This document shows, in pieces, positions 8,016 through 53,815 of a stretch of DNA of 64,000 bases. A program made the translations under genes and the position numbers. This DNA is from an uncultured Acidobacteriota bacterium (GTDB taxonomy: Bacteria > Acidobacteriota > Thermoanaerobaculia > UBA5066 > Gp7-AA6), in the NCBI GenBank assembly GCA_963707935.1, contig CAVPRN010000002.1, forward strand, positions 176,542 through 240,541, written 5' to 3'. A model generated the notes under the pieces. It was not told the origin of the DNA and searched no databases. It worked only from the letters and a program-made list of their open reading frames with translations. Position 1 is the first letter of the stretch. Every line of letters starts with the position of its first letter.

Positions 8016-9588
8016 TCACCTTGCCAGCGTCTGATCGTAGAACCGCGCGAGGTCGGCCTTCATCTGCTGGAGGGCCGGCTCGTGCAGATAGATCATGTGT
8101 CCCGAGGGGTAGTAGCCGAAGGCGATGTTCTTCTCGAGCGACGCGTCGAGGCCCATGTGGGCGAGGGTGTACTCGGTCTCGAAGAAGGGTGTCGCGAAGT
8201 CGTAGTAGCCGTTCGCCGAAAAGATTTTCAGGTTCGGGTTGATCGACATGACGGCGCGCAGATCTTCCGCCACGTCGGGCATCGGGGCGCGTCCGCCGGC
8301 GGTCTGGTGGCGGTTGTCCCAGTCCTTGCCCGACCTCTTCGTAGTTGAACGGCTTGTAGAGATCCTCGGACTTGTAGCCGAGCGTGTCGCGGACGTAGGC
8401 GTTGAACGCCGCCGTGTACGCGCTCGCGATCGCCGTGCCCGCCGGGTCGTATTCGGGGTTCTCGCCCGCGGCGTCGCGGTCGATCCCGAGGAATCGCGCG
8501 TCGAGCCGCCCGATCGTGCGCCGCTCGCCGCGCAGGACCTCCTTCTGGTAGCGGCCTGGGTCGATCCGCAGGTTCGAATTGCGAATGAACGTCTCCGGGA
8601 GCCCCGTGTAGCGGCGCAGCTTCGCCACGATCGCGGCGCGCGTCGCCTCGTCGAGCTTTGCGCCCTGCTGGAGCGCCTGGGAGTATTCGCCCAGGGCGAA
8701 CTTTCGCACTTCGGCGAGGAAGGCCGCGAGGTCCGGCGGCTGCGGGTCGAGCTTCTTGTGGAACCAGGAGGCCGCGGCCATGGTCGGCAGATAGAGCTCG
8801 TAGGCGCGGTCGTTCGAGAAAGCGGGCCCGTTGAAGTCGTCCCAGGCGTTCAGGTACGAGGAGATCATCACCGCGCCGTTGAACGCCATCCCCTTCCCTT
8901 CGAGATGCGCGAGGAGCGCGGCGCCGCGCGTCGTGCCGTAGGACTCCCCCATCAGGAACTTCGGGGAGTTCCAGCGGCCGTTGGCGTTCATCCACCGCTC
9001 GAGGAACTGCCCGAAGGCCTCGACGTCCTGGTCGGTTCCGTAGAAGTTCTTCGGCTCCCCCTTGCCGATGATCCGCGAGAAGCCGGTCCCGACCGCGTCC
9101 ACGAAGACCAGGTCGGTCCGGTCGAGCAGGCTGTCGGAGTTCTCGACGAGACGGTAGGGGGGCGGCGGCGTGTAGCGCGCGTCGGGCGTCTCGACGCGGA
9201 GCGGCCCGAAGGAACCCATGTGGAGCCAGATGCTCGAAGAGCCGGGGCCGCCGTTGAAGCAGAACGTCACGGGGCGCTGCTTCGCGTCGGCGCCGTCGGC
9301 CGTGTAGGCGACGTAGAACATCCGCGCGATCGGCTCGTTCTTCGAGTCTTTCAGGTCGATCGTGGCGGCGGTGGTCGTGTAGGCGATCGGCTTGCCGCCG
9401 AGCGTGATCCGGCCGTGCTTGACCGCCGGCGCCGGAGCGGGGGCGGGCGTCGGCGTCGGTGTCGGCTCCTTGCCCGCCGCCGAGTCGGGCTTCGCGCTTC
9501 CCGATTCCTGCGCGAGGGCGATCGAGACCCCGAGAGACGCCGCGAAGAGGGCCGCCGCGAAGACGCGGCACCGAGCGACGAGAGTCAT
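8016..9588 (-). CDS. S10 family serine carboxypeptidase, secreted; reading frame broken by a +1 indel near 8310
   Basis: AAAGGAGA Shine-Dalgarno, signal peptide, a Pro/Thr-rich linker, then peptidase S10 motifs (FNGGPGSSS, GESYGG-like GESYGTTRG). The C-terminal 88 aa continue in another frame (ORF 8016-8282) after ..YKPFNYEEV. An extra G in a G-run explains the shift. Confidence 0.75.
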
Positions 9589-9652
9589 GCGCACGAGTCT
9601 CCTTTCGCGTTCGAAACGGCCGAGAGCCTATTACAGGGGCGGGCCCGGCCGC

Positions 9653-11470
9653 TCAAAAGCCGGGCGGCCGCTCCCGGGCCGCGCCGAACGCCCGCTCGAG
9701 CGCGATCCCGGCCGAGCCGATCGTCCCTTCGTCGAAGAGGCGGCCGATGAGCGACACGCCGTGCGGGACGCGCCGCGGGGGCGAGAGGACGGGCATCGGG
9801 CGCGCGGGGTCCGGCGCCCAGTCGCTCCGCGCCCGCGCGACCTCGACGAAGCCGGCCGGGAGCGTGAGCGAAGGGTGTCCCGTGAAGTTCGTCACGGTCA
9901 GGACCTCGTCCCGGAGCGCCGGGACGAGCAGCAGGTCGGCCTTTTCGAAAAGGCGCTCCATCTCCCGCGCCACCTTGCGGCGCAGCCGATCGGCCTGCAC
10001 GAAGTCGACCGCGGAGAGGAAACGCGACTGGCGGAAGACGTTCGGCCAGGCGTCGGAGACCTGCACCTTCAATTGATCGAGCCCCCCGGAAAGCGTCAGC
10101 TCCTCGAACGCGGCGGCCGCTTCGGCGAAGAGGATCGTGTTCAACGACCCGTAGGGCCAGTCCGGGAGGCTCACTTCGACCGCCGTCATGCCGAGGCGCT
10201 TCGCCGTCTCGAGCGCCGCGCGATCCACTTCGGTCGCCGGGCTCTCGTTCATCCACGCCGGGAAGTAGCCGAGCCGGAGGCCGCGCGCGCCGCTGTTCGC
10301 GTCGAAGTCGAGCCGGCTCGCGACCGTCGAGAGGTCTCCCGGGTCCGGCCCCGAGATCGCGGCGAGGACGAGCATCGTGTCCTCGACCGAGCGGGCCATC
10401 GGACCCAGCTTGTCGAGCGACCAGCAGAGCGTCATCGCGCCGGTCCGCGGGACGCGCCCGAAGGTCGGGCGCAGACCGGTCACCCCGCAGCGCATCGACG
10501 GATCGACGATCGAGCCTTCCGTCTCGCTCCCGATCGAGAACGCGACGAGCGCCGCCGCGGTGGCCGCGCCCGGGCCCGCGCTGCTCCCTCCCGAGCCCTC
10601 TTCGAGGACCCAGGGGTTCATCGTCTGGCCCCCGAACCAGATGTCGTTCAACGCCAGGGCGCCGAGCGAGAGCTTCGCGACGAGGACGGCGCCCGCGTCT
10701 TCGAGACGCGCGACGACCGCGGAATCGGCGTCCGGAATCCGATTTCGGTAGGGCTCGGCGCCATAGGTGGTCGGGATCCCCTTCGTGTCGAGCAGGTCCT
10801 TGACGCCGAAAGGAATGCCGTGGAGGGGACCGCGGCGCTTTCCGGCCGCGATCTCCGAGTCGGCGCGGCGCGCCCGCTCGAGCGCCCGCTCCGGCGTGCG
10901 CGTGATCACGCAGCGCAGCTTCGGGTCGAATCGCTCGATCCGGTCGAGGTAGATGCGCGTGAGCCGTTCCGAGGTGAGCGCCCGCTTCTCGATCCAGACC
11001 GACTGGGCCGCGACCGGCGCGAAGGCGATGTCCTCGTCGCGCTTCGGCAGAGGCCCGGGATCCGCCGCGCTCCGCACGAACCGGTCGCGCGCCGGGGCCC
11101 ACGTCACGCCCGGGATCCGGGGATTCCAGAGCGTCGCCGGGGAGAGGTCCGGCTCCAGAGCGACTTTCCTCGGACCCACCCGGCGCTCCATCGTCGAGGC
11201 CATCGACTGGCGCCAGTTGCCGGCGGCCTGCGCCCGATGGGCTTCCGACATCTCGACGCGCGTGAGCTTCGAGGCCTCGGCGATCGTCGCGGCGGAGACC
11301 TCGGGGCCGACCGGAGGCGCGGTGCCGAACGCCGGCGGCGTGCCGGCCACCGGGGTGACCGGAGGCTCCGGGCCGGGCGCGGCGGGTCGCGCCGCCGCCT
11401 TCGCCACCGCGCCGGCGCCGAAGAGTCCGGCGGCGGCGCGCGTCAGGAAATCCCGTCGCGAGTTGGGCAT
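9653..11470 (-). CDS. amidase (amidase-signature family), TAT-exported
   Basis: GAGGAGAGG Shine-Dalgarno. Twin-arginine signal MPNSRRDFLTRAAAGLFGAGAVA. GGSSxG amidase-signature motifs (GGSSAGPGAA). 606 aa. Confidence 0.85.
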   Translation of the reverse strand: MPNSRRDFLTRAAAGLFGAGAVAKAAARPAAPGPEPPVTPVAGTPPAFGTAPPVGPEVSAATIAEASKLTRVEMSEAHRAQAAGNWRQSMASTMERRVGPRKVALEPDLSPATLWNPRIPGVTWAPARDRFVRSAADPGPLPKRDEDIAFAPVAAQSVWIEKRALTSERLTRIYLDRIERFDPKLRCVITRTPERALERARRADSEIAAGKRRGPLHGIPFGVKDLLDTKGIPTTYGAEPYRNRIPDADSAVVARLEDAGAVLVAKLSLGALALNDIWFGGQTMNPWVLEEGSGGSSAGPGAATAAALVAFSIGSETEGSIVDPSMRCGVTGLRPTFGRVPRTGAMTLCWSLDKLGPMARSVEDTMLVLAAISGPDPGDLSTVASRLDFDANSGARGLRLGYFPAWMNESPATEVDRAALETAKRLGMTAVEVSLPDWPYGSLNTILFAEAAAAFEELTLSGGLDQLKVQVSDAWPNVFRQSRFLSAVDFVQADRLRRKVAREMERLFEKADLLLVPALRDEVLTVTNFTGHPSLTLPAGFVEVARARSDWAPDPARPMPVLSPPRRVPHGVSLIGRLFDEGTIGSAGIALERAFGAARERPPGF

Positions 11471-34474: not shown

Positions 34475-34551
34475 GGGGCTGTAGCTCAGTTTGGGAGAGC
34501 GCCTGAATGGCATTCAGGAGGTCGCCAGTTCGATCCTGGTCAGCTCCACCA
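34475..34551 (+). tRNA. tRNA-Ala (anticodon GGC), CCA encoded
   Basis: Cloverleaf: acceptor GGGGCTG/CAGCTCC with the G3:U70 Ala identity pair, anticodon loop aTGGCAt, T-arm GTTCGATCC, 3' CCA. Confidence 0.9.
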
Positions 34552-36374: not shown

Positions 36375-38287
36375 CTAGCGCTCGCCGCCGAAATCCTCCT
36401 CGGGCGACTGGCGCTGCTCGTCGAGCACGCGGTTGATGTTGACGGCGGCGGAAATGAGACCCAGGTGGGTGAACGCCTGGGGGAAGTTCCCGAGCGACTC
36501 GCCCGTCAGGCCGATCTCTTCGGAGTAGAGGCCGAGATGATTGGCGTAGCCGAGCATCTTCTCGAAGGTGAGACGCGCCGCGTCGAGCCGTCCCGACCCG
36601 GGCGAGAACCTCCGCCAGCCAGAACGTACACATGGAGAAGGTTCCCTCCTCCTCCTCGCTGATGCCGTCGGGTGAGACCCGCGGATCGTAGCGCCGGACG
36701 AGGTTGTCGCTCTCGAGATTCCCCTGGATCGCCTGGAGGGTGCCGAGCATGCGGGGATCGGAGGGAGAGATGAACTTGACCATCGGAGCCAGCAGCATGG
36801 ACGCGTCCAGCACGTCGCTGTCCAGGCTCTGGACGAAGGAGTTCCTGGAACGGGAGAAGCCCCGCTCCATGATCGTCTCGTAGATCGCGTCTCGCGTGGC
36901 GAGCCATCGGTCGCGGTCCCCCGGCAGGCTCTCTCTTCATGGAGAGGCGAAATGCGCGATCCAGCGCCACCCAGCACATCATCTTGGAGAACGTGAAGTC
37001 CTGACGCCCTCCGCGCACCTCCCAGATACCTTCGTCCTTCTCGCTTCCAATGGTCGCAAACCCAGCCGGCGATGCCGCGCACGAGGTTCCAGAGGCGATG
37101 GGACAGGGGCTCGCAGTACTTGGCATAGAGATAGAGGGCATCGAGCAGATCACCCGCGACGTCGAGCTGGAACTGCCTGGCCGCGTCGTTCCCGATTCGG
37201 ACAGGGCGAGAGCCTCGGTAGCCCTCCAGGTGAGCGAAGCTGGATCTCCGAAATCTCCCGGCGTCCGTCGATCCCGTAGAGGACGCCGCAAGCCTTCCTC
37301 GATATGGCAATGCTCCGCCAGGAAAGAGATGAACTGGACCGCCTCCTCCGTGATACCCCACCCGCAGGAACGCGTAGACGGTGAACGCGGCGTCGCGAAT
37401 CCACGTGTACCGGTAGTCCCAGTTGCGATAACCGCCGACGCGCTCGGGGAGACTGCAGGTGGCCGCCGCCACGATGGCGCCCGTAGGCCGGAACGTCAGC
37501 AGTTTCAACGTCAGCGCGGATCTCTTGACCATCTCCCGCCAGCGGCCCTGGTACCGGCTTCGGATGATCCAGTTCTGCCAGAAACGCAGAGTGCGCCGGA
37601 ACTCGCTCTGGCAGATTTCCTCGAGCTTCTCCAGTGGAGGAGGCGGCTCCTCGTCGGCCTGCGCGAGAACGACCGGAATCTGGTCGCCTTCGCGAAGAAG
37701 GAACTCCGCGACGACGGCGCCCCCGTCGATCCGGGCCTCCAGCGGCGTGACGAGATTGACCGCGAGATCGCCCGCCGAGAAGCTGAAAGCCGAATTCGGT
37801 TCTCCGAATCCGGCTCTCCTGGCGTCCGTAGTCGAAGGCCGGCCGGCATTCGAGGCGGAAGGGGATCTCGCCACGCACGCCGCGGACCATCCGGACCACC
37901 TGATGGTCGGCTCGACGTTTCGGTCCGCCGCCGGCGTGGATGGGCATGAAATCGACGACTTCTCCGACGCCGTCCGGCGTCAGAAAGCCGCGTCATCAGG
38001 ACATTCGAGTCCGGAAGGTACATCTGCCGGCGGCCCGCTTCTTCCGAGACCGCGGCGATTCGGAAGTGGCCGCCGCGGCGGTCATCCAGAATCGAAGCGA
38101 AGAGACTCCCCGAATCGAAATAGGGAAGGCAAAGCCAATCGATCGTTCCGTCCGTACCGACCAGCGCACAGGTGTGCAGGTCGCCGATGATCCCGTGACT
38201 CTCGATCGGCAGGTAGCTCAAGGCTCTTTCGTCGTCGTTTCGAGAAGCCGGGCAAGGGCCGGCACCGGGCGCCTCCCCTCGCGGCAT
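36375..38287 (-). CDS. glycoside hydrolase family 15 (glucoamylase/trehalase-like), multiply frameshifted
   Basis: N-terminal domain [39 protein letters not shown]-terminal ..[17 protein letters not shown]. At least four frame switches. Confidence 0.65.
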
Positions 38288-38532: not shown

Positions 38533-39120
38533 TCAGGCGAGCGCTATGAACGCCTTCGGATCGCTCCACTGCCCGCGCTCATAGAGGAACCGAACCGCCT
38601 TGTCCACGACGATCTGGCCGTCGTCGGGGGAGATCGCGATCTCGGCGCGCTCGAGCGGCCGGGGCGTCGGGCCCTCGAAGTTGATGCCCGAAATGTAGTA
38701 GCCCGACCCGTGGCAGGGGCACTTGAACTTGTTTTGCGCAGGGAGCCAGTTGGGCGTGCAGCCGAGATGCGTGCAGACGGCGATCAGCGCGTAGATCGAG
38801 TCGGTGTTACGCACGATCCAGACGCCGAACTTCTCCTTCCATCGCTCGTCCACGCCCATGCCGTAGCTCGACGGGTCGCCGGCTTTGAAGCGCGTCGGCG
38901 GCTCGAAGAGGACATTGGGGAAAAGGAAGCGGACCGTCGCGGCCAGCCCGGCGGCCGTGGCCGCGGCGAAGGCGATCCAGGCCAGGACCATCCACTTCAG
39001 AGCCGAGCGGCGGTCCATCGCGTCGGTCCGAGGGTCGGCCGTCCCGAGCACCCCCTCGGGAGAGGGCTCTGTCGGGCTCGAGCCGGTAGGCGTTTTCGGA
39101 ATCTCCGGGACGGCGCTCAC
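38533..39120 (-). CDS. Rieske [2Fe-2S] protein, copy 1 (orphan)
   Basis: TAT-like DRRSALKWM, CTHLGC...CPCHGS cluster boxes. About 85% identical at protein and DNA level to the Rieske gene at 51867-52466. Confidence 0.8.
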   Translation of the reverse strand: MSAVPEIPKTPTGSSPTEPSPEGVLGTADPRTDAMDRRSALKWMVLAWIAFAAATAAGLAATVRFLFPNVLFEPPTRFKAGDPSSYGMGVDERWKEKFGVWIVRNTDSIYALIAVCTHLGCTPNWLPAQNKFKCPCHGSGYYISGINFEGPTPRPLERAEIAISPDDGQIVVDKAVRFLYERGQWSDPKAFIALA

Positions 39121-39329
39121 GATCTTCTTCCGGAGATCTCAACGCAGTTTCGGCTCGTCGGATTTCGCACGGATCGTCCCTCGGCCCGCAAGGCTTCGAG
39201 ACGAGCGGAAATCCCCCTTCCGCCGGTCCGCGCGGGAACCGCCGCCTGGGAGTCCGCGGCCGACGGTTCCTGGCCGCCGCGAGGCCGCCGTTCTGAAATA
39301 TATATCGTAATCCGATATGTTTCTCCAGA

Positions 39330-39644
39330 ATGGCGAAGGAGGAGCTCATGGCGAGGTTGAAGGTCCTTCCGACCGCATTGGCGGCCGGCTTCACCTGGGG
39401 GATCGGGGTCCTGCTTCTCGGCAGGGTCTCGGGTGGAGGGTGGGGAGCGCGGTTGGTCGAGGTACTCTCGAGCGTCTATCTCGGTTATGCCTCGACTTTT
39501 CTGGGCGGGCTGATCGGTGGGCTCTGGGCGTTCGCGGACGGGTTCCTCGCGGGCCTCGTGCTGGCGTTCTTCTACAATGCCTTCGCCGGCCCGCGCTCCG
39601 AACCGGTCAGCATTCTGAAACGGACCGAGCAGCCGGCGCACTGA
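39330..39644 (+). CDS. small hypothetical membrane protein
   Basis: AAGGAGGAG Shine-Dalgarno. AT-rich promoter-like stretch (tgaaatatatatcgtaat) upstream. 104 aa with 3 TM helices. Confidence 0.4.
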   Translation: MAKEELMARLKVLPTALAAGFTWGIGVLLLGRVSGGGWGARLVEVLSSVYLGYASTFLGGLIGGLWAFADGFLAGLVLAFFYNAFAGPRSEPVSILKRTEQPAH

Positions 39645-40098
39645 GCCGGACGTCGCGCGGGCCGCGCCGGCCGGAGGCGCGGGTGCAGGTGTGTCATCGG
39701 AGCGCCGTCGATCTGGTTCGCGACCGCCGGGGCGCGACGTCCGGAAAACTCCGATCGGATAGCGGGAGCTGGATTGAGCCGGAGTGATTCCGGCACGCCG
39801 TGCCGCTTTTCCGAGAATCAGATGAAGCGCGGCAGGGCGCAGCGAAATTCGGAAAGCCGAAGAAACCACTGCAGTACCGCCCTTCTGCACCGAGTCGTCG
39901 GAGATTCGCTGGCAGGAGAATCGGCGGGCGCACCTCCTCGTAACCGTCAGGTAGGATTCGAGGCTACGCTCCCGGAGCCGAGTCGGGCCGATCCCGGACG
40001 AATCGCTGACGAGCGCGACCCCGCGGTCGGACCGGGCGCTCGCCAGGAGGAGGGCGTCTGACGGGGCGCCGTCGGCCACTTTCGAGCTCGAAGGGACG

Positions 40099-40918
40099 AT
40101 GCGACTTCTGAATCCCGACTTCGATCCCGCCCGCTTTTCGGAACGGGTCCGAATCGCGCCGCATTGCGCGCTGCTACTCGACTACGACGGCACGCTCGCC
40201 CCTTTCGCGCCGGATCGGAGTCACGCGATCCCGTACCCGGGAGTGCGCGAGGCGCTTCGAGCGATCGCGGGCGACGGCCGCACGCGGCTGGGCATCGTCA
40301 GCGGCCGGCCGGCCGAGGATCTGGCGCGGCTGACGGCGCTCCCGGCCGGCGTGGAGCTGTGGGGTTCCCACGGGCTCGAGCACGTGCCGGAAGAGGGCGA
40401 AGCGCTCACCAATCTTGCTGGGGAAGTCCGGCATGCGCTCGAAGAGGCCGAAGAGTGGCTGTCGCGAAACGGCTGGGACTCCCTGCTCGAGAAAGCCGTA
40501 CGGCCTCGCCCTGCACGGCAGGGGTCGTCCGGAGCTGTTCGCGGCTGCAGCTCCCCTCTTTCTCGAACGCTTCTCGGATCCGCTGCGCCGCGCGGGTCTG
40601 GAGATTCGTTCGTTCGACGGCGGGGTGGAAGTCCGGCGCGAGGGGATTCACAAGGGGCTCGCCGTCGAGCGGGTGCTGGCGGAAATGGGTCCCGGCACGC
40701 CGGTGGCCTATCTGGGCGACGACGAGACGGACGAGGACGCTTTCATGGCGATTCGGGGGAGGGGTCTGGCGGTCCTCGTGCGGCCGGAAGAACGCCCGAC
40801 CGGGGCGGATCTATCCCTGCGCCCTCCCGAAGAGCTGCTCGATTTTCTCGCACGTTGGGCGGATCCGGAAGGAGGCGTCCCGCTGCTTGCCGGTGTTTTG
40901 AGCGGATCCCCCTCGTGA
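40099..40918 (+). CDS. otsB: trehalose-6-phosphate phosphatase (OtsB, HAD family), frameshift ~40500
   Basis: HAD motif I LLLDYDGTLAP. C-terminal half (..GIHKGLAV..YLGDDETDEDAF..) in ORF 40415-40918. Confidence 0.7.
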
Positions 40919-40978: not shown

Positions 40979-41007
40979 TTGACATGGATCAATTAGTTCG
41001 ATATAGA
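40979..41007 (+). promoter_or_regulatory. sigma-70-type promoter (TTGACA-N17-TATAGA) for the MarR-like regulator
   Basis: Near-consensus -35/-10 with 17-nt spacing in an AT-rich island. ATG lies ~10 nt downstream, giving a near-leaderless transcript. Confidence 0.5.
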
Positions 41008-41016
41008 GTGAACTCA

Positions 41017-41493
41017 ATGAACCGCAGTGCCAGGCCTCCCGCGGACCTCGCCTTCCACGTCGAGGAGTGGGGGCTCCTCTTCGAGCAGTCGGGGCTTCCC
41101 CGGATGGCGGGGAGAGTGCTCGGCTGGCTCCTCGTCTGCGATCCCCCGGAGCAGACCGCCGCGCAGGTCGTCGAGGCCCTGTCCGCCAGCAAGGGCTCGA
41201 TCTCGACGACGCTCCGGCTTCTCGAGCGGTTCGGCCTCGTCGAGCCCGTGGGCCGTCCGGGCGAGCGGCGAACGTACTTCCGGATCGCGCCGGGGGCGTT
41301 CACGACCATGATGGAAGACAAACTGAAGTCCGTCGCGACCTGGCGGGAGCTCGCGGACCGCGGGATCGCGATCCTCCAGAAGTCGGGGCCGGAACGGCTG
41401 CGCCGCCTCCAGGCCGTGCACGACTTCTACGCCTTCCTCGAGCGGGAGTTCCCCGCGCTGATCCTCCGCTGGAGGAAGGAGCATCCGAAATGA
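41017..41493 (+). CDS. MarR/GbsR-like winged-helix transcriptional regulator
   Basis: wHTH ..AAQVVEALSASKGSISTTLRLLERFGLVE..RRTYFRI. Confidence 0.6.
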   Translation: MNRSARPPADLAFHVEEWGLLFEQSGLPRMAGRVLGWLLVCDPPEQTAAQVVEALSASKGSISTTLRLLERFGLVEPVGRPGERRTYFRIAPGAFTTMMEDKLKSVATWRELADRGIAILQKSGPERLRRLQAVHDFYAFLEREFPALILRWRKEHPK

Positions 41494-41999: not shown

Positions 42000-42015
42000 T
42001 GCCTCAGTGACTCAA

Positions 42016-42178
42016 CCGCTCGCAACGCGACCAGGTTTCGCGACCTAAGGAGCGAAACGACTCGCGTTGCGGGAGCCGGAGCGCAGCAAGGGAATCGGCG
42101 AGCGGTCGAGCCCCTTTGGGCGAGCCGCTCGCCGGTGCGCCCCGCAGGGCGCAGATTCCCGAGCAAGCGAAGGCGACG
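42016..42178 (+). repeat. structured intergenic repeat element, copy B (full length)
   Basis: Nested hairpins: cgctcgcaacgcgacc...ggtttcgcg-N-cgaaacg...tcgcgttgcgggagc, then gagcccctttgggcgagc and ggtgcgcc ccgcag ggcgcag palindromes. Confidence 0.8.
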
Positions 42179-42179
42179 G

Positions 42180-42428
42180 TCAGTAGAAGTCGGAACAGGA
42201 GAGGTAGTAGCCGCAGGCCGGCTCCGGGCAGAGGAGCTTGCACTTCCTCTCGAGGAGCGTCGCGCCGCAGTTGGGGCAGACCCGTTCGGGGCGGTGCTCG
42301 GACGGCGTCTCCTCCGGCGGCCGGCTCGGCGCGGTCTCCCGAGCGCGAAGATCGGACGCGGGCTCGCTCACGGCTTCGGAGTCGGCGTCGGTGTCGCCGG
42401 GGGCGGCTCCGTCTTCGCGAGGAGCCAT
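42180..42428 (-). CDS. small zinc-ribbon protein (hypothetical)
   Basis: CPNCG...[13 protein letters not shown] four-Cys ribbon. Might be the C-terminal part of the upstream lipoprotein if an indel is present. Confidence 0.35.
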
Positions 42429-45737: not shown

Positions 45738-45814
45738 CACGTCGCTCGCGCTTCGTGCTCGCGGGCCCAGAGACTTGCGAAGGGGATTTCAGTTTCCGTC
45801 GGACTGATCGTTAC

Positions 45815-45971
45815 GCTCGCAACGCGACCAAGGTTTGCGAGCTAACGAGCAAACCGACTCGCGTTGCGGGAGCCGGAGCGCAGCGAGGGTGTCAGGTCGG
45901 CCGTCGAGCCCCTTTGGGCGAGCGGACGGCCGGTGCGCGCAGCGCAGAACCCGAGCAAGCTACGGCGACGG
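45815..45971 (+). repeat. structured intergenic repeat element, copy C (full length)
   Basis: Collinear with copy B. The inner stem differs (ggtttgc/gcaaacc vs ggtttcgc/gcgaaac), a compensatory change that keeps the pairing. Confidence 0.8.
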
Positions 45972-46573
45972 AAACAGCATGTACGTCCCCACGTCGGCCC
46001 TCGCATAGCCGGGCTCGATCGTCCGCGGGAACGTCATCCCGAGGCGCCACGGCGCCATCCAGGACTCCCAGGTCGAAACCGCCCGGCCCCGGGTCATGCC
46101 GCCCGACCAATCGGGGGCAACGTCGGCCCCGAGCGAAGGATCCGTCTCCTCGACCAGCAGCACGAAACCGCCCGTCGCGATCCGCCGCAGCTCCTCGGCG
46201 ATCCTCCTCGCCGCATCGTCGGGCACGTGCTGGAGAACGGTGAAGCTCATCGCGAAATCGAATGCGCCGTCCTCCGCGGGGAGCTCCGCGAGGTCCGCGA
46301 TCCCGCTCCACTCGACTCCGGGCTGCAGGCGCCGCGCCTCCGCGAGGAGCGCGTCTTCGCGCTCGAACCCGACGACGCGGGCGGCGAACTCGGCGAGCAC
46401 GGGAGTGAGCCGGCCGTAGCCGCAGCCGACGTCCGCCGCGCGGCGGATCGGGCGCTCCCGGGCGGCCGTCTCGAGGCATCGGCGGACGTCCCTCTGCTCG
46501 AGGTAGTTGCGCAGGGCCGACGCCGCTCCCGAGATGTCCGAGACCTCGTCGAATCGCCAGGCGTGGCGGCTCA
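45960..46573 (-). CDS. class I SAM-dependent methyltransferase
   Basis: Motif I VGCGYGRL, post-I FDFAM. 204 aa. Confidence 0.8.
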
Positions 46574-46773: not shown

Positions 46774-49700
46774 CTAGCGGCCCCGGCCGCCGCCGGCGGA
46801 GGAGGAGGCTGCGGCCCTCCCCTCCGAAGCGCGCGCGGCCTCGGGCGCCGGCGCGGCGGCCGCTCCGACCGGCGCCGTTCCGCCGTTGACGCCGATCGAC
46901 CAGACGTAGTCGCGCAACGCGCGGGTGATGAGGTCCGGGCTGCCGAGGAACGACTTCACCTGCTCGTCGCTCCCCAGGATCTGATCGAACTCCGCGCGAT
47001 CCCTGGCGAAGGCCGGAGCGTCGAGCATTCCCGCGAGCGGCGAGATCCGATGGCCGTCCTCCCCCATCGGGAAGTTGGTCGGCATCCGGGTGCCCGGCAT
47101 CCACTCGTCCGGGCGCCGGATCCAGTCGTTGATCCAGTCGTGACGGAGCCGCGTCGAGCCGCCATCTGGAGGTTCGGCGCGAGGGTCGCGCGGTCCACGC
47201 CGGGCGCGTTCATCTCCTGCTCGTTGCGCGGATGGCACTGCTTGCAGCGGAGGAGCTCGAAGACCTTGCGCCCGGCCGCCCAGCGCGTCGGGTCGGTGAC
47301 GTAGTCGGCGGTGTCGAAGGGGTAGCGCGCCCGGTCGAGCGCCGCGAAGTAGCGCGTCAGGTCGTTCAACTCCTCGGTCGAGAGGCCGAAGGTCGGCATG
47401 TGGACTTCGAGCCACGGCCGGATCTGCCCCGTCCTCGGCGCCTTCAGGAACGCGAAGAGCCAGTCGCTCTGCGTCTTGGCGCCTTCGCCCTGGATGATCG
47501 GCGGCGCGAGCGACGGGTCCGCGAGGAGCGAGCGGAAGGAGCCGCCGAAGCCTTCGATGACGTGGCACCCCTGGCAGTTGTGGTTCTTGATGATGCGCCG
47601 GCCCCGCTCGATCGCGGTCTCGTCGGCCGAGAGCTCCTTCTCCGCCGCGGCCGAAGCGTTCAGCTTCTGGAACCCGAGGACCGCCGTCGTCACGTAGTCG
47701 AGCTCGCGCGGCGAGAAGCGGAAGAGCGGCATCTTCAGCTTCTCCTCCCAGCCTCGGGCGCGGTCGCGGTCGAAGAGGCGCGTGTTCTCGAGCTTCGCGC
47801 GGAACCAGTCCTGGCGCGTGTGCGGGACGTGCACGAAGCCGAAGTCGAGCCGGTGGACGGCCTTGGAGCCCTCCTCCGTCAGCTCGGTGCCGATCGGCTT
47901 GGCGTTCTCGAACCCCGGGATCGCGTGGCAGGCGAAACAGCCGTAGTGCGCGATGAGCTTCTCGCCGGCGTAGACCTCCTTGGCGTGCAGGTCCATCTTC
48001 GCAAGCTCGGCTTTCGCGTCGAAGACGGTCTTCGTCGCCATCTGGAAGTAGAGGGCCATGCGCTCGAGGGTGGCCGGATCGGTCTTCGCGAGCGCCGTCC
48101 GCTCGAAGGCGGGAGGCGCCTTGAGGTTCGAGAGGTATTCGGCGATGTCGAGCGCCTCCTCTGGCGTCAAGCGCAGGTTCGGCATCTTGGTCTCGGGATT
48201 CCAGGCCTTCGGGTCGAGGATCCAGTGATAGATCCAGTCGCGCGAGGCCTTGGATCCGATGCCGGCGAGGTTCGGGCCGAACTGGCGGTAGGTCCCGATC
48301 AGGTCGCGCTCCGCGTCGGGGTCGGCCTGGTGGCAGCCGAAACAGCCGCGCGCGGCGAGGAGCTTCTGGCCGCGAGCCGGATCTCCCGCGCCCGCGACCG
48401 GGGCCACCGGCCCCGGCTTCGACCTCTCGTACAGGTAGGCCACGATCGAGTTGACCATGGCGTCGTTCTCGATCCGGCCTTCGGCGTTCATCCGCTCCTG
48501 GGCGGCGGTCGGCTTCTCCGGGCCCGAGACGTTGACGAAGTTCTCCAGATAGAAGAAGGACGGCATCCTGGTGTCGGCGCGGAACGCGGGCGGGTTCATC
48601 ACCCAGCGCGTCGCCCACTCCCGCGGGACTTTCGCGGCGATCTTCTCGAGCGAGGGCCCGACCCTCGGCAGCGCCTGGCGCTCGAGCCCCTCGATGCGAT
48701 GACAGCCCCAGCAGCCCAGCGACTCGACCATCCTCATGGCGCCGTCGAGCCTGGGCGCGTCGGGGAAGTTGGTCTCGCGGGCGTGGCACCGATAGCAGCC
48801 GGCTTCGGTGTACTGGAGCGGCAGCACCGGGCTATCGTTGAACTTGTCGAAGCGCCAGTCGTACTTCCTCTCCCAGATCGCCGCCTGTCGGACGCTCCCC
48901 GGAGAGTGGCCGGCCGACCAGAAAGAGCTCGCGCGGTCGCGCCCGCCGTGGCACGGCGTGCAGCCGAAGGACCCGTAGGGGTGGGGAGATTCGCTTCCGA
49001 CCATCAGGGCGAGATCCGGGTGCGTGCGGAAGACGGAATTCGAGGCATCCTCGAACCCCTTGCGGTCCGCCGCCATGTGGCAGGTCGCGCACCGGTCCAC
49101 GCGGGGGATGCGCATGAAGTTGACGTCGTTGTAGTGCTCGGGGAGCTGGACCTGCTGCACGCGCAGCGACGGGTTGATCATGTCGAGGATCGGCGAGTTG
49201 CGGAGCGTGAAGATGCGTGTCCTGCTTCAGGCTCCCGTACTTCTGCCGTGCGAGCTTGAAGTCCGCGGAGAGCTTCTCGATCGCGGCCCGGGCCTCGATC
49301 TCGCGCGCCTCGATCTTCTGGATCTCCGCCTTCGCGGCGGACTCCTCGCGCTGCAGGGTCGCCAGGCGGAGATTGGCCGCGTCGAGCTCCGCGCGGAGGC
49401 GGTCGAGGTCCCGCCGCGCCGAAGGGGCCGACTTCGGCTTGTTGGCCAGGGCGTCCTCGTACTTGTAGAGGGCCGCGTCGAAGGAGGCCTTCGTGAACTT
49501 GGCCTGCTGGTCGGCGAGGTAGATCTTCGGCGAGAGCTCCTGGAGCTTGCGGTTCTGCCGGGCGCGCTCCTTGGACTGCGCGTCGGCCTGGCGCCGCGCC
49601 TCGCCGAGCTCCCCGAGCAGTCGCCGGCGCTCCTCGCCGTAGGCCTTCTCCCGGGCCGCGAGCGCGGCCTCGCGGGTCTTCCGCGCGTCCAGGCGCAGGA

Positions 49701-49857
49701 AGACCCGCTGGATCGTCTTCCAGGGACGGGCGTAGTCCTCGATCACCATGCCGATGAAGATGACCGTCAGAACCGCGCCCGCCGCGAAGAAGACGCGGTT
49801 CAGCTTCGGGATGTCGTAGTGATGGTCGATCGGCTCGGCGGGGGGCTTTCTGGGCAT
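46774..49857 (-). CDS. large membrane-anchored multiheme cytochrome c of the bc-type complex, frameshifts ~49210 and ~47150
   Basis: N-terminal TM anchor and coiled coil (ORF 48832-49857). Then eight CxxCH motifs (CATCH, CTPCH, CYRCH, CWGCH, CFGCH, CFACH, CQGCH, CKQCH). C-terminus in ORF 46774-48789. Confidence 0.75.
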
Positions 49858-49953: not shown

Positions 49954-51032
49954 TCATATGTTGAACGAGAACTCCGGGATGTTCACGATGTACTTCAAAT
50001 TGAAGATCCAACGCAGATACATCTTGATCGGCAGCGCCATCATCGTCAGCACGAGCGTGACGCCGAGCATGTACCGGGCCATCCCCATCTTCTCGAAGAA
50101 GCCGCGCAGGAGCGTCTTCGAGAAGAGGAGCGGCAGCGCGACGATGTAGAAGCCGCAGATCGCGAGGCCGACGATCTCGCGCACGAGCCAGAAGTTCGGC
50201 ATCGGGCGCTTCAACATCCGGATCCAGATGACCTCCGACAGGTTGATGTTGTTGAGCGGCACCAGTTTGTTCACGTCCCAGAACTCGTAGGGTCCGAAGA
50301 AGTTCCAGTTGGGGCCCCGCAGGAACGTGCCGAGCACGATGAGCGTGCACCAGAGCACGATGAACCCGAGGAGAAAGAGCGTGATTTCCGTCTTGCGCTC
50401 GCGGAAGGTGAAGTAGCCGTTCCCCCTGGGATTGGTGTCCATGTAGGGGATCGCCATGAGCCCGACGATGATGAGCGACGGCAGCACGACGCCGGCGAGC
50501 CACGGGTCGAAGTAGACGAGCATCTCCTGGAGCCCCAGGAAGTACCAGGGGGCCTTCGCCGGATTCGGCGAGTCGGTCGGATTGGCGGGCTCCTCGAGCG
50601 GCGCCTTCAGGAAGATCGACCAGATGATCATCACCGCCGTGACGAGCGTCAGGCAGATCAGCTCGACGTACACGAGGTCGGGCCAGGAGAAGACCTTCTG
50701 GGCGGAGTCCTCCCCCTCGATCGTCGGCAGTCCCGCGGCGAGACGCCGGTCGTTCTCGTACGCCTGATTGAGCGCGAACCAGAAGAAGAACCCGACGAGG
50801 AAGATCATCCCGACGATAGGGACGTTGTCCGGCAGCGTCGCGACCTTGTTGAAGTTGGGGTCGATGTACGAGAGGCCGATGCCGCCCGCGACGAGGGCGA
50901 GGAGCGCGAGCCCCCCTTCTTCGTCCAGAGCGGACGCCACCGGATGCCGACGAGCAGCAGCACCAGCATCAGCGTGACGAGGTACTGCGGCGCCGAAATG
51001 AAGTTGATGAAGGACTTGAGGAGGTTGATCAC
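49954..51032 (-). CDS. cytochrome b C-terminal / b6f subunit-IV-like protein (split cytochrome b), frameshift near N-terminus
   Basis: PWYFLGLQEML (PEWY-box region). Multi-TM. N-terminal TM in ORF 50805-51032. Confidence 0.8.
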
Positions 51033-51042
51033 GGCAGCGTCG

Positions 51043-51831
51043 CTAGACCGGACCGGAAATTCCGCCGTCTTTCCGGACGCGCCAGAAGTGCACGGCCATC
51101 AGAAACGCCGCCACGAGCGGGATCCCGACGCAGTGGAGGACGTAGAAGCGCAGGAGGGCCCCGGCGCCGACGAAGCGGCCGCCGAGCAGTCCGAAGCGCG
51201 CGTCGTTGGTCGAAGTCACGAGCGGGATATCGCCGATCTTCAGGAGACCCGTGCCCGGGCCTTGCAGCCCGATGAGCGGGGTCGCCGAGGCCATGTTGGA
51301 GCCGACCGTGATGGCCCAGATCGCGAGCTGGTCCCAGGGCAGGAGATACCCCGTGAACGAGAGGAGGAGCGTCAACACGAGCAGGATCACGCCGATGACC
51401 CAGTTGAACTCGCGCGGCGGCTTGTAGGAGCCGGTCATGAAGACCCGGAACATGTGGATCCAGACCGAGATCACCATCGCGTGCGCGCCCCAGCGGTGCA
51501 CTTCGCGCATGATCCCGAAGGGCACCTGCTCGCGCAGGTCGAGGATGTCCACGAAGGCGTACTCGACCGTCGGGCGGTAATAGAACATCAAGAGGAGGCC
51601 GGTGAACGTCAGGACCAGGAAGAGGAAGAAGGTGATCCCGCCGGCGCACCAGGTGTAGCGCATCTTGACGCCGGACTTCCGCGTCTTGACGGGGTGCAGG
51701 TGCAGCACGACGTTGCCGAGCATCGCGAGCACGCGCTTGCGGTTCGAGTCGGGGATGCCGACGCGGAAGATGGATTTCCAGAGCTGGCTCGTGACGATCG
51801 AGTGCTGTATCTGGCGCCAGCGAGATTCCAA
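51043..51831 (-). CDS. cytochrome b6-like (N-terminal heme-binding half of cytochrome b)
   Basis: Paired His helices (..[20 protein letters not shown].., ..[17 protein letters not shown]..). TTG start after GGAGG. Confidence 0.85.
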
Positions 51832-51866: not shown

Positions 51867-52466
51867 TCACGTCAGCTTGACGAACGCCTTCGCGTCGGAC
51901 CACTGTCCCCGCTCGTAGAGGTATCGGGTCGCCTTGTCCACGACGATCTGCCCGTCGTCGGGCGAGACCGTGATTTCGGCCCGCTCGAGCGGCCGCGGCG
52001 CCGGGCCTTCGAAGTTGATGCCCGAAACGTAGTAGCCCGAACCGTGGCAGGGGCACTTGAACTTGTTCTGCGCCGGCAGCCAGTTGGGCGTGCAGCCCAG
52101 GTGGACGCAGACAGCCACGAGAGCGTAGATCGAGTCGGTGTTGCGGACGATCCACACCCCGTATTTCTCCTTCCACCGCTCGTCCACCCCCGGCGCGTAG
52201 GTGGACGGGTCCCCCGCCTTGAAGCGGGTCGGGGGCTCGAAGAGGACGTTGGGAAAGAGGAAACGCACGGTCGCCGTCAGCCCCGCCGCGGTCGCGGCGG
52301 CGAAGCCGACCCACGCGAGCGCCATCCATTTGAGGGCGGAGCGCCGCGTCACCCCGTCCGGGGTGACGTCGGCATCGGGCGGCGGCTCGATCTGTCGCTC
52401 GGGAGTCGACATCCCTGGGGAAGGGAGCCTATCAGACGGTCCGGCGCCGCTCAAGCCGCGGCGCAC
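51867..52466 (-). CDS. Rieske [2Fe-2S] protein, copy 2 (in bc operon)
   Basis: TAT-like TRRSALKWM. CVHLGC...CPCHGS. Start may be the internal MSTPERQ (52412). Confidence 0.85.
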   Translation of the reverse strand: MRRGLSGAGPSDRLPSPGMSTPERQIEPPPDADVTPDGVTRRSALKWMALAWVGFAAATAAGLTATVRFLFPNVLFEPPTRFKAGDPSTYAPGVDERWKEKYGVWIVRNTDSIYALVAVCVHLGCTPNWLPAQNKFKCPCHGSGYYVSGINFEGPAPRPLERAEITVSPDDGQIVVDKATRYLYERGQWSDAKAFVKLT

Positions 52467-52478
52467 GCCGGCGAAGCC

Positions 52479-53372
52479 TCACGAGACCTTCGCTCCGATC
52501 GCCGCGATCGCCTCGCGCGCCGCGGCGCGAACGCGCAGATTCGGATCCTCGCGCGCGACCTTTTCGAGGAGCGTCAGGCTGTCCCTGTCACGGAGGAGCG
52601 CCAGGGCCTTCGACGCCCCGACCATGGCCGTCTCCGCCTGCTCGGCCGAGAGCGTCGCCTGCCGGTTGAGCGCCTCGCGGTCGAGCATCGAGCGAAGCAC
52701 CGCCAGGCCCGCGCCGTCTCCGAGCGACGCGAGCGCGATCGCGGCGTTCCATCGAACGTCGGCGACCGGATCGCCGAGCAGGACCTCGAGCCGGGGCGCG
52801 GCGGAACGGTCGCCGAGCTGCCCCATCACGTACGCCGCCATCTTGCGCATCCCCGCGTCCTCGGAGCTCGAGGCCTCCGTCACGGCCGGGAGCGCGCGCG
52901 CGTCTCGGATCCTCCCGAGGGCCCAGATCGCGTAGAGACGCGTGTCGGGGTCGGGATCCTTCGCGGCCGTGAGCAGCGCCTCGACCGCCTGCGGCTCTCC
53001 GAGCTTCCCGAGCACGAGGGCGAGGTAGCGGCGCACGGGAACGTCATCGGCCCGCGTCGAAGAGAGGGACGTGAAAATTCGGAGCGTTTCGGACGCGAGC
53101 GCGGCGCGCTCGGGCGCCTCCAGGCTCGGAAGCGAGCGCGAGAGCTCGAACGCCGCCTGCCAGCGGCGGCTGGCGGTGCCTCCCCGCACCTCCTGAAGGT
53201 AGTCGGCGGGCGTGCGCCGTTCGAAGGTGATTCTCGAGAAGAGCCAGAAGACGCCGACCGCCGTCCCGACGACGAGCAGCGGCAGGAGGAAGAAGCGAAA
53301 TACTGTTCCGCCTCCGCCTCCCCCGCTCTCCTCCGGCGCGGGCTCCTCCTCGGGAGGCCGCTCTTCGGTCAC
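52479..53372 (-). CDS. membrane-anchored HEAT/PBS-lyase-repeat protein
   Basis: GTGA overlap with the ferredoxin stop. One TM helix. Repeated ..AIWALGRIRDARALPAV.. HEAT units. Confidence 0.55.
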   Translation of the reverse strand: MTEERPPEEEPAPEESGGGGGGTVFRFFLLPLLVVGTAVGVFWLFSRITFERRTPADYLQEVRGGTASRRWQAAFELSRSLPSLEAPERAALASETLRIFTSLSSTRADDVPVRRYLALVLGKLGEPQAVEALLTAAKDPDPDTRLYAIWALGRIRDARALPAVTEASSSEDAGMRKMAAYVMGQLGDRSAAPRLEVLLGDPVADVRWNAAIALASLGDGAGLAVLRSMLDREALNRQATLSAEQAETAMVGASKALALLRDRDSLTLLEKVAREDPNLRVRAAAREAIAAIGAKVS

Positions 53373-53815
53373 AGGACGGGAAGGTATCGCTTGGCCTGCG
53401 TGATCGGATTGGGAACGAAGATGGCGTCCTTCTCGCAGACGGTCTCGCAGAGCCGGCAGGAGACGCAGGGTGCCGCGTCCACTTCCGCGATCTTGTGGAA
53501 GGTCTCGTGGAGCGGGTCGTCGATCAGGTAGATGCAGTCGAAGGGGCAGATGTCGATGCAGAACTCGCAACCCGTGCAGAGGTCGCGGTCCACGATCGCC
53601 TTGGGGATGTCGCGGGGCTTGACCTTCTCGACGAGCTCCCCCTTCTGATCCTGGATGCAGGAGACGGGGCAATATCGAGCACAGACCGAGCAGTCGATGC
53701 AGCGGTCCGCGTGGATGACGTACTTCTCGCTCTTGTCGCCCGTGATCGTGTGCGTGGGGCACTTGATCTCGCACACCCCACAGCCGATACACGTTTCCGT
53801 GATGAAGTGAGGCAT
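53369..53815 (-). CDS. 4Fe-4S ferredoxin (four Cys clusters)
   Basis: CIGCGVCEIKCP, CIDCSVCARYCP, CTGCEFCIDICP, CVSCRLCETVCE. Confidence 0.8.
   Translation of the reverse strand: MPHFITETCIGCGVCEIKCPTHTITGDKSEKYVIHADRCIDCSVCARYCPVSCIQDQKGELVEKVKPRDIPKAIVDRDLCTGCEFCIDICPFDCIYLIDDPLHETFHKIAEVDAAPCVSCRLCETVCEKDAIFVPNPITQAKRYLPVL

Follow-up and report, generated by a model that had tools for sequence, protein, structure and literature searches.

Extra genes for the Rieske iron-sulfur protein are a recognised route by which one respiratory or photosynthetic complex can be adjusted without duplication of the whole, and the prior evidence for it is drawn almost entirely from proteobacteria and cyanobacteria. 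In both Rubrivivax gelatinosus and Rhodospirillum rubrum, a further Rieske gene is found away from the bc1 cluster, and its product is described as exchangeable and functionally redundant (Ouchane et al. 2005; Schneider and Schmidt 2005, cited in PMC6256036). The same paper describes two differentially regulated Rieske Fe/S proteins in Mesorhizobium loti MAFF303099 (PMC6256036), and PetC2 of Synechocystis sp. PCC 6803 is made in response to low-oxygen or high-light stress (PMC9958174). Here we analyze a 64,000-nucleotide stretch of DNA of ~70% G+C from an uncultured, soil-type Acidobacteriota bacterium (contig CAVPRN010000002.1; the whole stretch is referred to as the window), in which a Rieske [2Fe-2S] gene that stands alone (copy 1, 38533-39120) accompanies a second one (copy 2, 51867-52466) located in an operon for a Rieske-cytochrome b complex. 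Both are intact open reading frames on the minus strand, of 195 and 199 amino acids (aa), at the coordinates given in the original prediction. We propose that copy 1 is probably an alternative Rieske subunit of the same complex, placed under separate control. We favor this exchange because the gene is conserved and constrained, the membrane anchor and hinge are kept, two residues of the cluster loops differ, and the gene has an operator-like palindrome of its own.

The arrangement resembles that of Rubrivivax and R. rubrum in that a second, close Rieske gene lies away from the cytochrome b cluster with its twin-arginine translocation (Tat) signal, anchor and cluster motifs intact, and by analogy subunit exchange within one complex would be the expected mode of action. 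However, theirs is a proteobacterial bc1 complex with experimentally proven exchange, whereas the present case concerns a complex of b6-type cytochrome b, subunit IV and octahaem cytochrome c in an uncultured member of the Acidobacteriota, with a stand-alone copy that has its own conserved palindrome. M. loti likewise has two Rieske paralogues in one bacterium, but in a proteobacterial bc1 and symbiosis context and with a different regulator. Synechocystis, with PetC1, PetC2 and PetC3, has several Rieske isoforms for a b6-type complex, and the stress response of PetC2 parallels the stress-linked context found here; its isoforms, in contrast, are more divergent from one another, PetC3 works outside the b6f complex, and the regulators are unrelated. 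Spare Rieske subunits encoded outside the operon are thus already known in other bacteria, and at the level of sequence copy 1 has the features of one. As far as our literature search reached, clade-wide conservation of the stand-alone state, covarying loop residues and a palindrome tied to MarR and superoxide dismutase genes have not been described; queries on the palindrome sequence and on Thermoanaerobaculia Rieske genes returned nothing relevant. The present case extends this pattern to uncultured Acidobacteriota, which are abundant in soils and sediments, and to b6-type/multihaem Rieske-cytochrome b complexes, a little-studied group with relatives in anammox bacteria.

Judged by alignment, the two copies are diverged paralogues with unrelated flanks. 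Both match the Rieske domain PF00355 (Pfam, cut-off 20.3) at 32.9 bits for copy 1 and 32.3 bits for copy 2. BLASTP aligned the proteins with 147 of 187 residues identical (79%, E = 3e-105), rising to 139 of 159 (87%) from the twin-arginine motif through the C-terminus; the ~85% identity of the original prediction therefore stands for the conserved part and is too high for the proteins overall. The similar DNA identity claimed over ~500 bp was borne out, at 82.0% (391/477) across codons 37-195. Elsewhere identity is 52.8% in codons 1-36, 47.5% upstream and 43.7% downstream. Because the DNA similarity is confined to coding sequence and the flanks are ~45-50% identical, we take the two as paralogues and not as an assembly duplicate with identical flanks, a scenario raised with the original prediction and now excluded on sequence grounds. 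The broader idea of an assembly artefact, with one locus or two strains represented twice, draws on the apparent origin of the window in an error-prone assembly and on nothing else in the sequence; it has against it the 86 nucleotide differences in the 477-bp core and the unrelated flanks, and also the fact that each copy has its own orthologues elsewhere in the same contexts, both being present on one contig at the related locus L001. We consider it scarcely credible. Around box II (core nucleotides ~241-390), copy 1 differs from copy 2 at 7-10 positions per 90 nt and from the operon copy of the nearest relative, L087, at 15-18 per 90 nt, a hint of local gene conversion between the window copies.

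Both copies retain the features expected for Tat export, anchoring by a single helix and binding of a high-potential-type [2Fe-2S] cluster. Copy 1 contains the motif DRRSALKW, one N-terminal hydrophobic anchor, the ligand boxes C116-T-H118-L-G-C121 (box I) and C134-P-C136-H137-G-S139-G-Y141 (box II), and the proline loop G-P-T152-P. Its N-terminus, MSAVP, is common to the L001 orthologue (P0001), its G+C content at third codon positions is ~0.9 and its codon usage is host-like. In the BLASTP alignment the two copies agree over the whole twin-arginine stretch RRSALKWM, as predicted, and in both it is followed by ~25 hydrophobic residues and then by the hinge FPNVLFEPPTRFKAG. A hydropathy scan called the anchor peak in copy 1, and copy 2 fell slightly under the threshold used. 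The two window copies share one sequence, VRFLFPNVLFEPPTRFKAGDPS, over the last part of the membrane helix and the hinge, and their helices differ at 4 positions; this nearly unchanged anchor and identical hinge are compatible with a shared membrane partner and favor it. The two Cys and two His cluster ligands, the disulfide cysteine pair, Ser139 and Tyr141 are all kept in both. In homologues, the Ser and Tyr that follow box II hydrogen-bond the cluster and raise its potential (PMC12954380). Both proteins scored well below the cut-off of 250 of the cyanobacterial/plastid PetC equivalog NF045928 (NCBIfam), at 68.4 and 68.6 bits; by this measure they are related to PetC and are not PetC equivalogs.

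We then compared 87 related loci, each scored for a cytochrome b gene directly downstream of the Rieske gene; L002 and L003 are one locus sequenced twice and were counted once. The nearest protein relatives are from Acidobacteriota/Thermoanaerobaculia metagenome assemblies (72-86% identical among the first forty matches listed). The collections hold no sequence identical to either window protein, the best relatives being ~80-86% identical. A Rieske gene without a downstream cytochrome b gene was found at 13 loci (the window, L001, L002/L003, L004, L005, L010, L011, L013, L014, L020, L084, L085 and L086). All 13 fall among the closest relatives, and they occupy differing gene neighborhoods; nearly every other locus is a full operon. 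Three cases show both kinds of copy in a single genome, namely the window, L001, and the pair L012 and L013 from one assembly bin, and at L004 the cytochrome c gene of the operon lies <10 kb from the stand-alone copy. Copy 1 is under strong constraint: the ratio of nonsynonymous to synonymous divergence (dN/dS) lies within 0.11-0.19, being 0.12-0.19 against its orthologues and 0.14 against copy 2, with a synonymous divergence of ~0.6-0.9. Within 7 kb of copy 1 no match to cytochrome b, subunit IV or cytochrome c was found, and a search of its surroundings for further copies of the cytochrome b, subunit IV, cytochrome c, ferredoxin and HEAT genes matched only those of the operon.

These data bear on the suggestion that copy 1 is the decaying relic of a duplicated operon in a degenerating region. 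Frameshifts in the neighboring GH15, otsB, otsA and acyl-CoA dehydrogenase genes would fit such decay, as would a regulator gene that seems degenerate. However, the open reading frame of copy 1 is intact and host-like in codon usage, with dN/dS ~0.15, remnants of the cytochrome b, subunit IV and cytochrome c genes are absent nearby, and the stand-alone state is ancient, being shared by 13 loci; the mapped frameshifts, moreover, are all of one kind and extend to a housekeeping gene, which suggests sequencing error rather than decay. A relic is for these reasons highly improbable, and we are confident that copy 1 is a real, functional and conserved stand-alone gene. Trees were built from protein, from all codon positions and from codon positions 1+2. 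The phylogeny against homologues that had been proposed as a check places each copy with its own orthologues, copy 1 with L001 and L004 (bootstrap 81-96%) and copy 2 with L087 (94%).

Two positions in the cluster loops separate the classes. Box I and the proline loop form the pocket of the Rieske cluster. The original prediction had called the cluster boxes identical, which is correct for box II (CPCHGSGYY) and wrong for box I, where CTHLGC of copy 1 stands against CVHLGC of copy 2. Stand-alone copies have Thr117, beside the box I His ligand, and Thr152, in the proline loop, at 13 of 13 loci, whereas 11 of the 13 operon copies from this clade pair Val117 with Ala152 (Fisher p = 2e-5). Thus CTHLGC is paired with GPTP in all stand-alone copies, and CVHLGC with GPAP in most operon copies. 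The two positions also covary among the 120 closest database proteins, where T/T and V/A dominate and V/T is rare; when the gene context was looked up, all three of the T/T proteins picked were stand-alone and the one V/A protein checked was in an operon. At position 178, Phe predominates among stand-alone copies and Tyr among operon copies. At position 117 it is the operon copy that looks derived, since Thr is the usual residue there in the operon copies of outgroups. The operon Rieske genes of L006 and L015 bear Thr117 and Thr152, a pair otherwise typical of stand-alone copies.

The closest solved homologue is Kustd1480 of Kuenenia stuttgartiensis (PDB 9rk3; 158 bits over residues 77-192), which has a Rieske midpoint potential of +335 mV (PMC12954380). 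Its parent complex, like that encoded in the window, combines a b6-like cytochrome b with an enlarged subunit IV and a multihaem cytochrome c, and its box I is CTHLGC, as in copy 1. It differs in having Phe in place of the Tyr141 of both window copies, in its proline loop (GPAP, against GPTP in copy 1) and in an operon that carries an NAD(P) oxidoreductase, where the window operon has ferredoxin and HEAT proteins. Furthermore, Kuenenia has whole extra complexes, whereas the window has a stand-alone Rieske gene.

The class-specific residues also bear on plain redundancy, in which copy 1 would be a functionally equivalent back-up or dosage copy, kept by chance or weak selection. In its favor, the proteins closely resemble each other, no residue of box II differs (Ser and Tyr included), the box II region carries the hint of gene conversion, and functional redundancy is what has been reported for Rubrivivax and R. 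rubrum (PMC6256036). Against this, copy 1 has been retained over many species at a synonymous divergence of ~0.6-0.9 under strong purifying selection, and the two classes differ by fixed, covarying cluster-loop residues and by separate regulatory signals. We regard redundancy as decidedly unlikely.

The regulatory signal is a 17-bp palindrome in the divergent intergenic region upstream of copy 1 (Table 1), first spotted by eye in the aligned upstream sequences of the stand-alone genes; its consensus, ATATCGT-N3-ACGATAT, is perfectly symmetrical. It has a single match in the window, where it overlaps an AT-rich, -10-like stretch. Allowing up to 2 mismatches, we counted 15 sites in 288 kb of stand-alone loci versus 0 in 1.21 Mb of operon loci. 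The palindrome is upstream of the stand-alone gene in the window and at nine related loci; the sites in the relatives are at L001 9921, L004 7510 and 9882, L011 9891, L013 6600 and 8889, L014 9917 and L020 9849, and further ones at L085 2957, 3906, 5175, 5664 and 8148 and L086 3891. It is also found just upstream of a MarR-family gene (Pfam-confirmed) in L013 and L085, with a match to its core at this place in L014, ahead of a gene for Fe/Mn superoxide dismutase in L013 and L085, ahead of a gene for a 98-aa protein in L004 and L085, and ahead of a zinc-ribbon protein gene in L085. At L013 it is followed by genes for superoxide dismutase, the membrane protein and the Rieske protein that all run in one direction, with spacings or overlaps of 4 bp. 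The palindrome is therefore a candidate operator of a small stress regulon, and the simplest reading of its distribution is that a MarR-type repressor with an autoregulated operator would control this regulon, the stand-alone Rieske gene included.

The gene content around the stand-alone copies is likewise distinct. Copy 1 had been described as standing alone between a frameshifted GH15 gene and a gene-poor kilobase; it does stand alone beside that gene, but the supposedly gene-poor kilobase contains the palindrome and a conserved gene for a small membrane protein, divergent from copy 1. A homologue of this gene directly adjoins the stand-alone Rieske gene at 7 of the 13 loci and adjoins no operon copy. 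Its product scored 69.7 bits against NCBIfam holin_4, with a cut-off of 70. Other neighbors at stand-alone loci are a CLC channel gene (7, with L002/L003 sequenced twice), an OmpA-like gene (3) and a MarR gene (4). None of these four kinds of gene was found beside any operon copy in the loci compared.

The window differs from the relatives that carry a MarR gene in the state of the regulator. Two short tblastn matches beyond the membrane-protein gene (sum E = 6.5e-5 against a 600-nt target) mark what is at best a MarR remnant, and a frameshift-tolerant full-length alignment over 39640-40110 did no better for an intact but frameshifted MarR gene than shuffled controls. A MarR_2 gene at ~41000-41493 belongs to a different subfamily. 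At 39680-39718, on the plus strand and thus opposite to the remnant, the window encodes RVQVCHRSAVDLV, which resembles the MarR helix RLQVSHQSAVELI; this could reflect a small internal inversion or chance.

In the reading that we favor, subunit exchange, the Rieske gene would have been duplicated early in a clade of Thermoanaerobaculia-like Acidobacteriota, at its base or close to it, so that the operon kept one copy and the other came to lie elsewhere. The stand-alone protein would take the place of the operon subunit in the cytochrome b6-type/subunit IV/octahaem c complex in certain situations, oxidative or oxygen stress being the most plausible, and at the quinol-oxidation site the cluster would thereby change in its redox or pK properties or in its robustness. 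In the window genome, where the regulator would be lost or degenerate, the stand-alone gene may be constitutively expressed. More tentatively, and with doubts that outweigh our confidence, we suggest that a MarR-controlled regulon swaps the Rieske subunit in response to oxygen or superoxide, the T117/T152 isoform altering cluster potential, pK or stability and so limiting radical leakage; in this proposal, the regulon would comprise the palindrome-marked Fe/Mn superoxide dismutase, the CLC channel, an OmpA-like lipoprotein, the small membrane protein and the stand-alone Rieske protein. The link to superoxide dismutase predicts when the alternative subunit would be made, and the T/T versus V/A residue pairs, together with the 17-bp candidate operator and the candidate MarR regulator, offer handles for experiments. 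If none of the regulatory and exchange readings holds, copy 1 is simply an ordinary retained paralogue.

Several observations weigh against exchange under separate control. Of the 13 stand-alone loci, 3 (L002/L003, L005 and L084) lack the palindrome, which elsewhere lies ~25-30 bp from the membrane-protein gene versus 53-182 bp from the Rieske gene. In the window, an intact MarR gene of the relatives' type gave no match at E < 1e-4 and superoxide dismutase gave none at all. A scan for consensus sigma-70 promoters around copy 1 found none, a result that is uninformative at 70% G+C; the terminator-like matches in the same scan lay only inside coding sequence. Ser139 and Tyr141, the best-known potential-tuning residues, are the same in both copies, and any redox shift may therefore be small. 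Reciprocal monophyly of stand-alone and operon copies had a bootstrap frequency of at most 8% in all trees, in which L015 (operon, T/T type) and L013 (stand-alone) are misplaced, so more than one duplication or some gene conversion is possible. Lastly, PetC3 of Synechocystis works outside the b6f complex (PMC9958174), so that similarity does not by itself prove a shared partner.

The PetC3 precedent (PMC9958174) equally serves the alternative that the stand-alone protein acts outside the operon complex, in some other membrane or periplasmic electron-transfer role, perhaps with the small membrane protein or with a partner encoded elsewhere. No cytochrome b gene adjoins the stand-alone copies, the membrane-protein gene is their conserved neighbor at 7 of 13 loci, and their regulation and other neighbors (superoxide dismutase, CLC channel and OmpA-like genes) are unlike those of the operon. 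However, an anchor and hinge almost identical to those of the operon copy are hard to explain with a different partner, the head domain is 87% identical, and the membrane protein resembles, at a borderline score, a holin-type family rather than a redox protein and is missing from 6 of the 13 loci. We consider a separate role unlikely, although it deserves more weight than redundancy.

Table 1. Features of the window discussed in the text, in order of position.
Feature	Position	Strand	Details
tRNA-Ala(GGC)	34475..34551	+	ARAGORN, Rfam
GH15/trehalase-like gene, downstream of copy 1	36375..38230	-	8 single-base insertions; Pfam TREH_N and Glyco_hydro_15 in three frames
Stand-alone Rieske [2Fe-2S] gene, copy 1	38533..39120	-	195 aa, GTG start; open reading frame list, Pfam PF00355
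17-bp palindrome ATATCGTAATCCGATAT	39302..39318		One mismatch to ATATCGT-N3-ACGATAT; divergent intergenic region
Small membrane-protein gene, divergent from copy 1	39330..39644	+	104 aa; probable start ATG 39348
MarR-family gene, at best a remnant (weak)	39723..39892	-	In-frame stop and frame change; tblastn
otsB (trehalose-phosphatase) gene	40099..40918	+	+1 insertions near 40492 and 40865; Pfam, frameshift-tolerant alignment
Octahaem cytochrome c	46956..49181	-	Pfam; 8 CXXCH motifs
214-aa protein between subunit IV and cytochrome c genes	49216..49857	-	Coding signal; only weak coiled-coil-type matches
Extended subunit IV-like membrane subunit	49954..50940	-	Pfam Cytochrom_B_C; ~six hydrophobic segments
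Cytochrome b6-like four-helix cytochrome b	51043..51831	-	Pfam Cytochrome_B; CxGG motif (C62)
Operon Rieske gene, copy 2	51867..52466	-	Open reading frame of 199 aa; box I CVHLGC, proline loop GPAP; Pfam
HEAT-repeat protein, upstream of copy 2	52479..53372, start approximate	-	Pfam HEAT_2
Poly-[4Fe-4S] ferredoxin, first operon gene	53369..53815	-	Pfam Fer4 families

Copy 2 lies, as predicted, in a complete bc-type operon, with Pfam support for each of its genes except that of the 214-aa protein and the transcription order ferredoxin, HEAT, Rieske, cytochrome b6-like, subunit IV-like, 214-aa protein and octahaem cytochrome c. The core order HEAT-Rieske-cytochrome b-subunit IV-multihaem cytochrome c recurs in many phyla, mostly in uncultured bacteria (window, L006-L083); among the matches listed, the assemblies are labelled Acidobacteriota, Planctomycetia, Omnitrophota, Latescibacterota, Gemmatimonadota, Neomarinimicrobiota, Fidelibacterota and Spirochaetia. 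The shared order also takes in the ~214-aa protein after subunit IV and a CxGG motif in the b6-like cytochrome b. Acidobacterial relatives have the ferredoxin gene ahead of this core, the ferredoxin being 94-99% identical at the loci most closely related and 83-87% identical in the group after them. The true start of copy 2 is most likely the ATG at 52412 (MSTPERQ...), giving 181 aa, because the N-terminus then matches that of its orthologue P0020, which L087 carries in the same operon with the same upstream synteny. The cytochrome b gene begins 36 bp downstream of copy 2, and the CxGG motif of its product is read as marking a haem c_n site (PMC5600118). A gap of equal size is conserved in related loci at the position of the 214-aa protein, and the HEAT gene call in L087 overlaps the ferredoxin stop codon.

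The GH15 gene had been described as riddled with frameshifts, which are not peculiar to it. Frameshift-tolerant protein-to-DNA alignment of L014 proteins to the window mapped ten frameshifts, 8 in GH15 and 2 in otsB, each a +1 insertion. Within ~32-45 kb the reading frame is broken in otsA, an acyl-CoA dehydrogenase gene, hflX (a housekeeping GTPase gene) and a DUF2400 gene as well, the stretches besides GH15 and otsB being ~32.9-34.4, 35.0-36.3, 42.8-44.1 and 44.1-45.2 kb, whereas no such breaks mar the 7-kb operon or several further long genes. Similar breaks occur in conserved genes of related long-read assemblies. A codon-usage Viterbi segmentation combined with a stop-distance test was noisy, flagging the intact cytochrome c gene, and served as a rough guide to enrichment over 32-45 kb only. 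Since the insertions are uniformly +1 and hflX is affected, the GH15-region frameshifts are probably consensus errors in a poorly polished long-read stretch and not gene decay, which weakens the picture of copy 1 in a decaying region. At L014, an intact 615-aa GH15 trehalase-like gene and otsB lie beside the MarR/membrane-protein/Rieske module, and the link to trehalose genes is therefore older than the window genome.

Gene order indicates that the stand-alone locus has been rearranged around a transfer RNA (tRNA) gene, tRNA-Ala(GGC), the sole Rfam match over the whole window. In L001 and L004 (around 9560-10940), this tRNA gene is immediately downstream of the stand-alone Rieske gene. In the window, the Rieske/membrane-protein module (38533-39644) is inverted relative to the tRNA gene and lies 4 kb from it, with the acyl-CoA dehydrogenase and GH15 genes in between; neither L001 nor L004 has sequence corresponding to 34.8-38.5 kb or 39.7-42.0 kb of the window. 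An intergenic element of ~150-180 nt, without a match in Rfam, occurs twice in the window (42000-42185 and 45795-45985) and also in L001 (10955-11115) and L004 (10900-11045 and 11130-11280). It is predicted to fold into a long hairpin with a consensus energy of -49.9 kcal/mol, in which 10 of 40 predicted pairs are kept through two-sided changes. The element may represent either a structured repeat or a small RNA.

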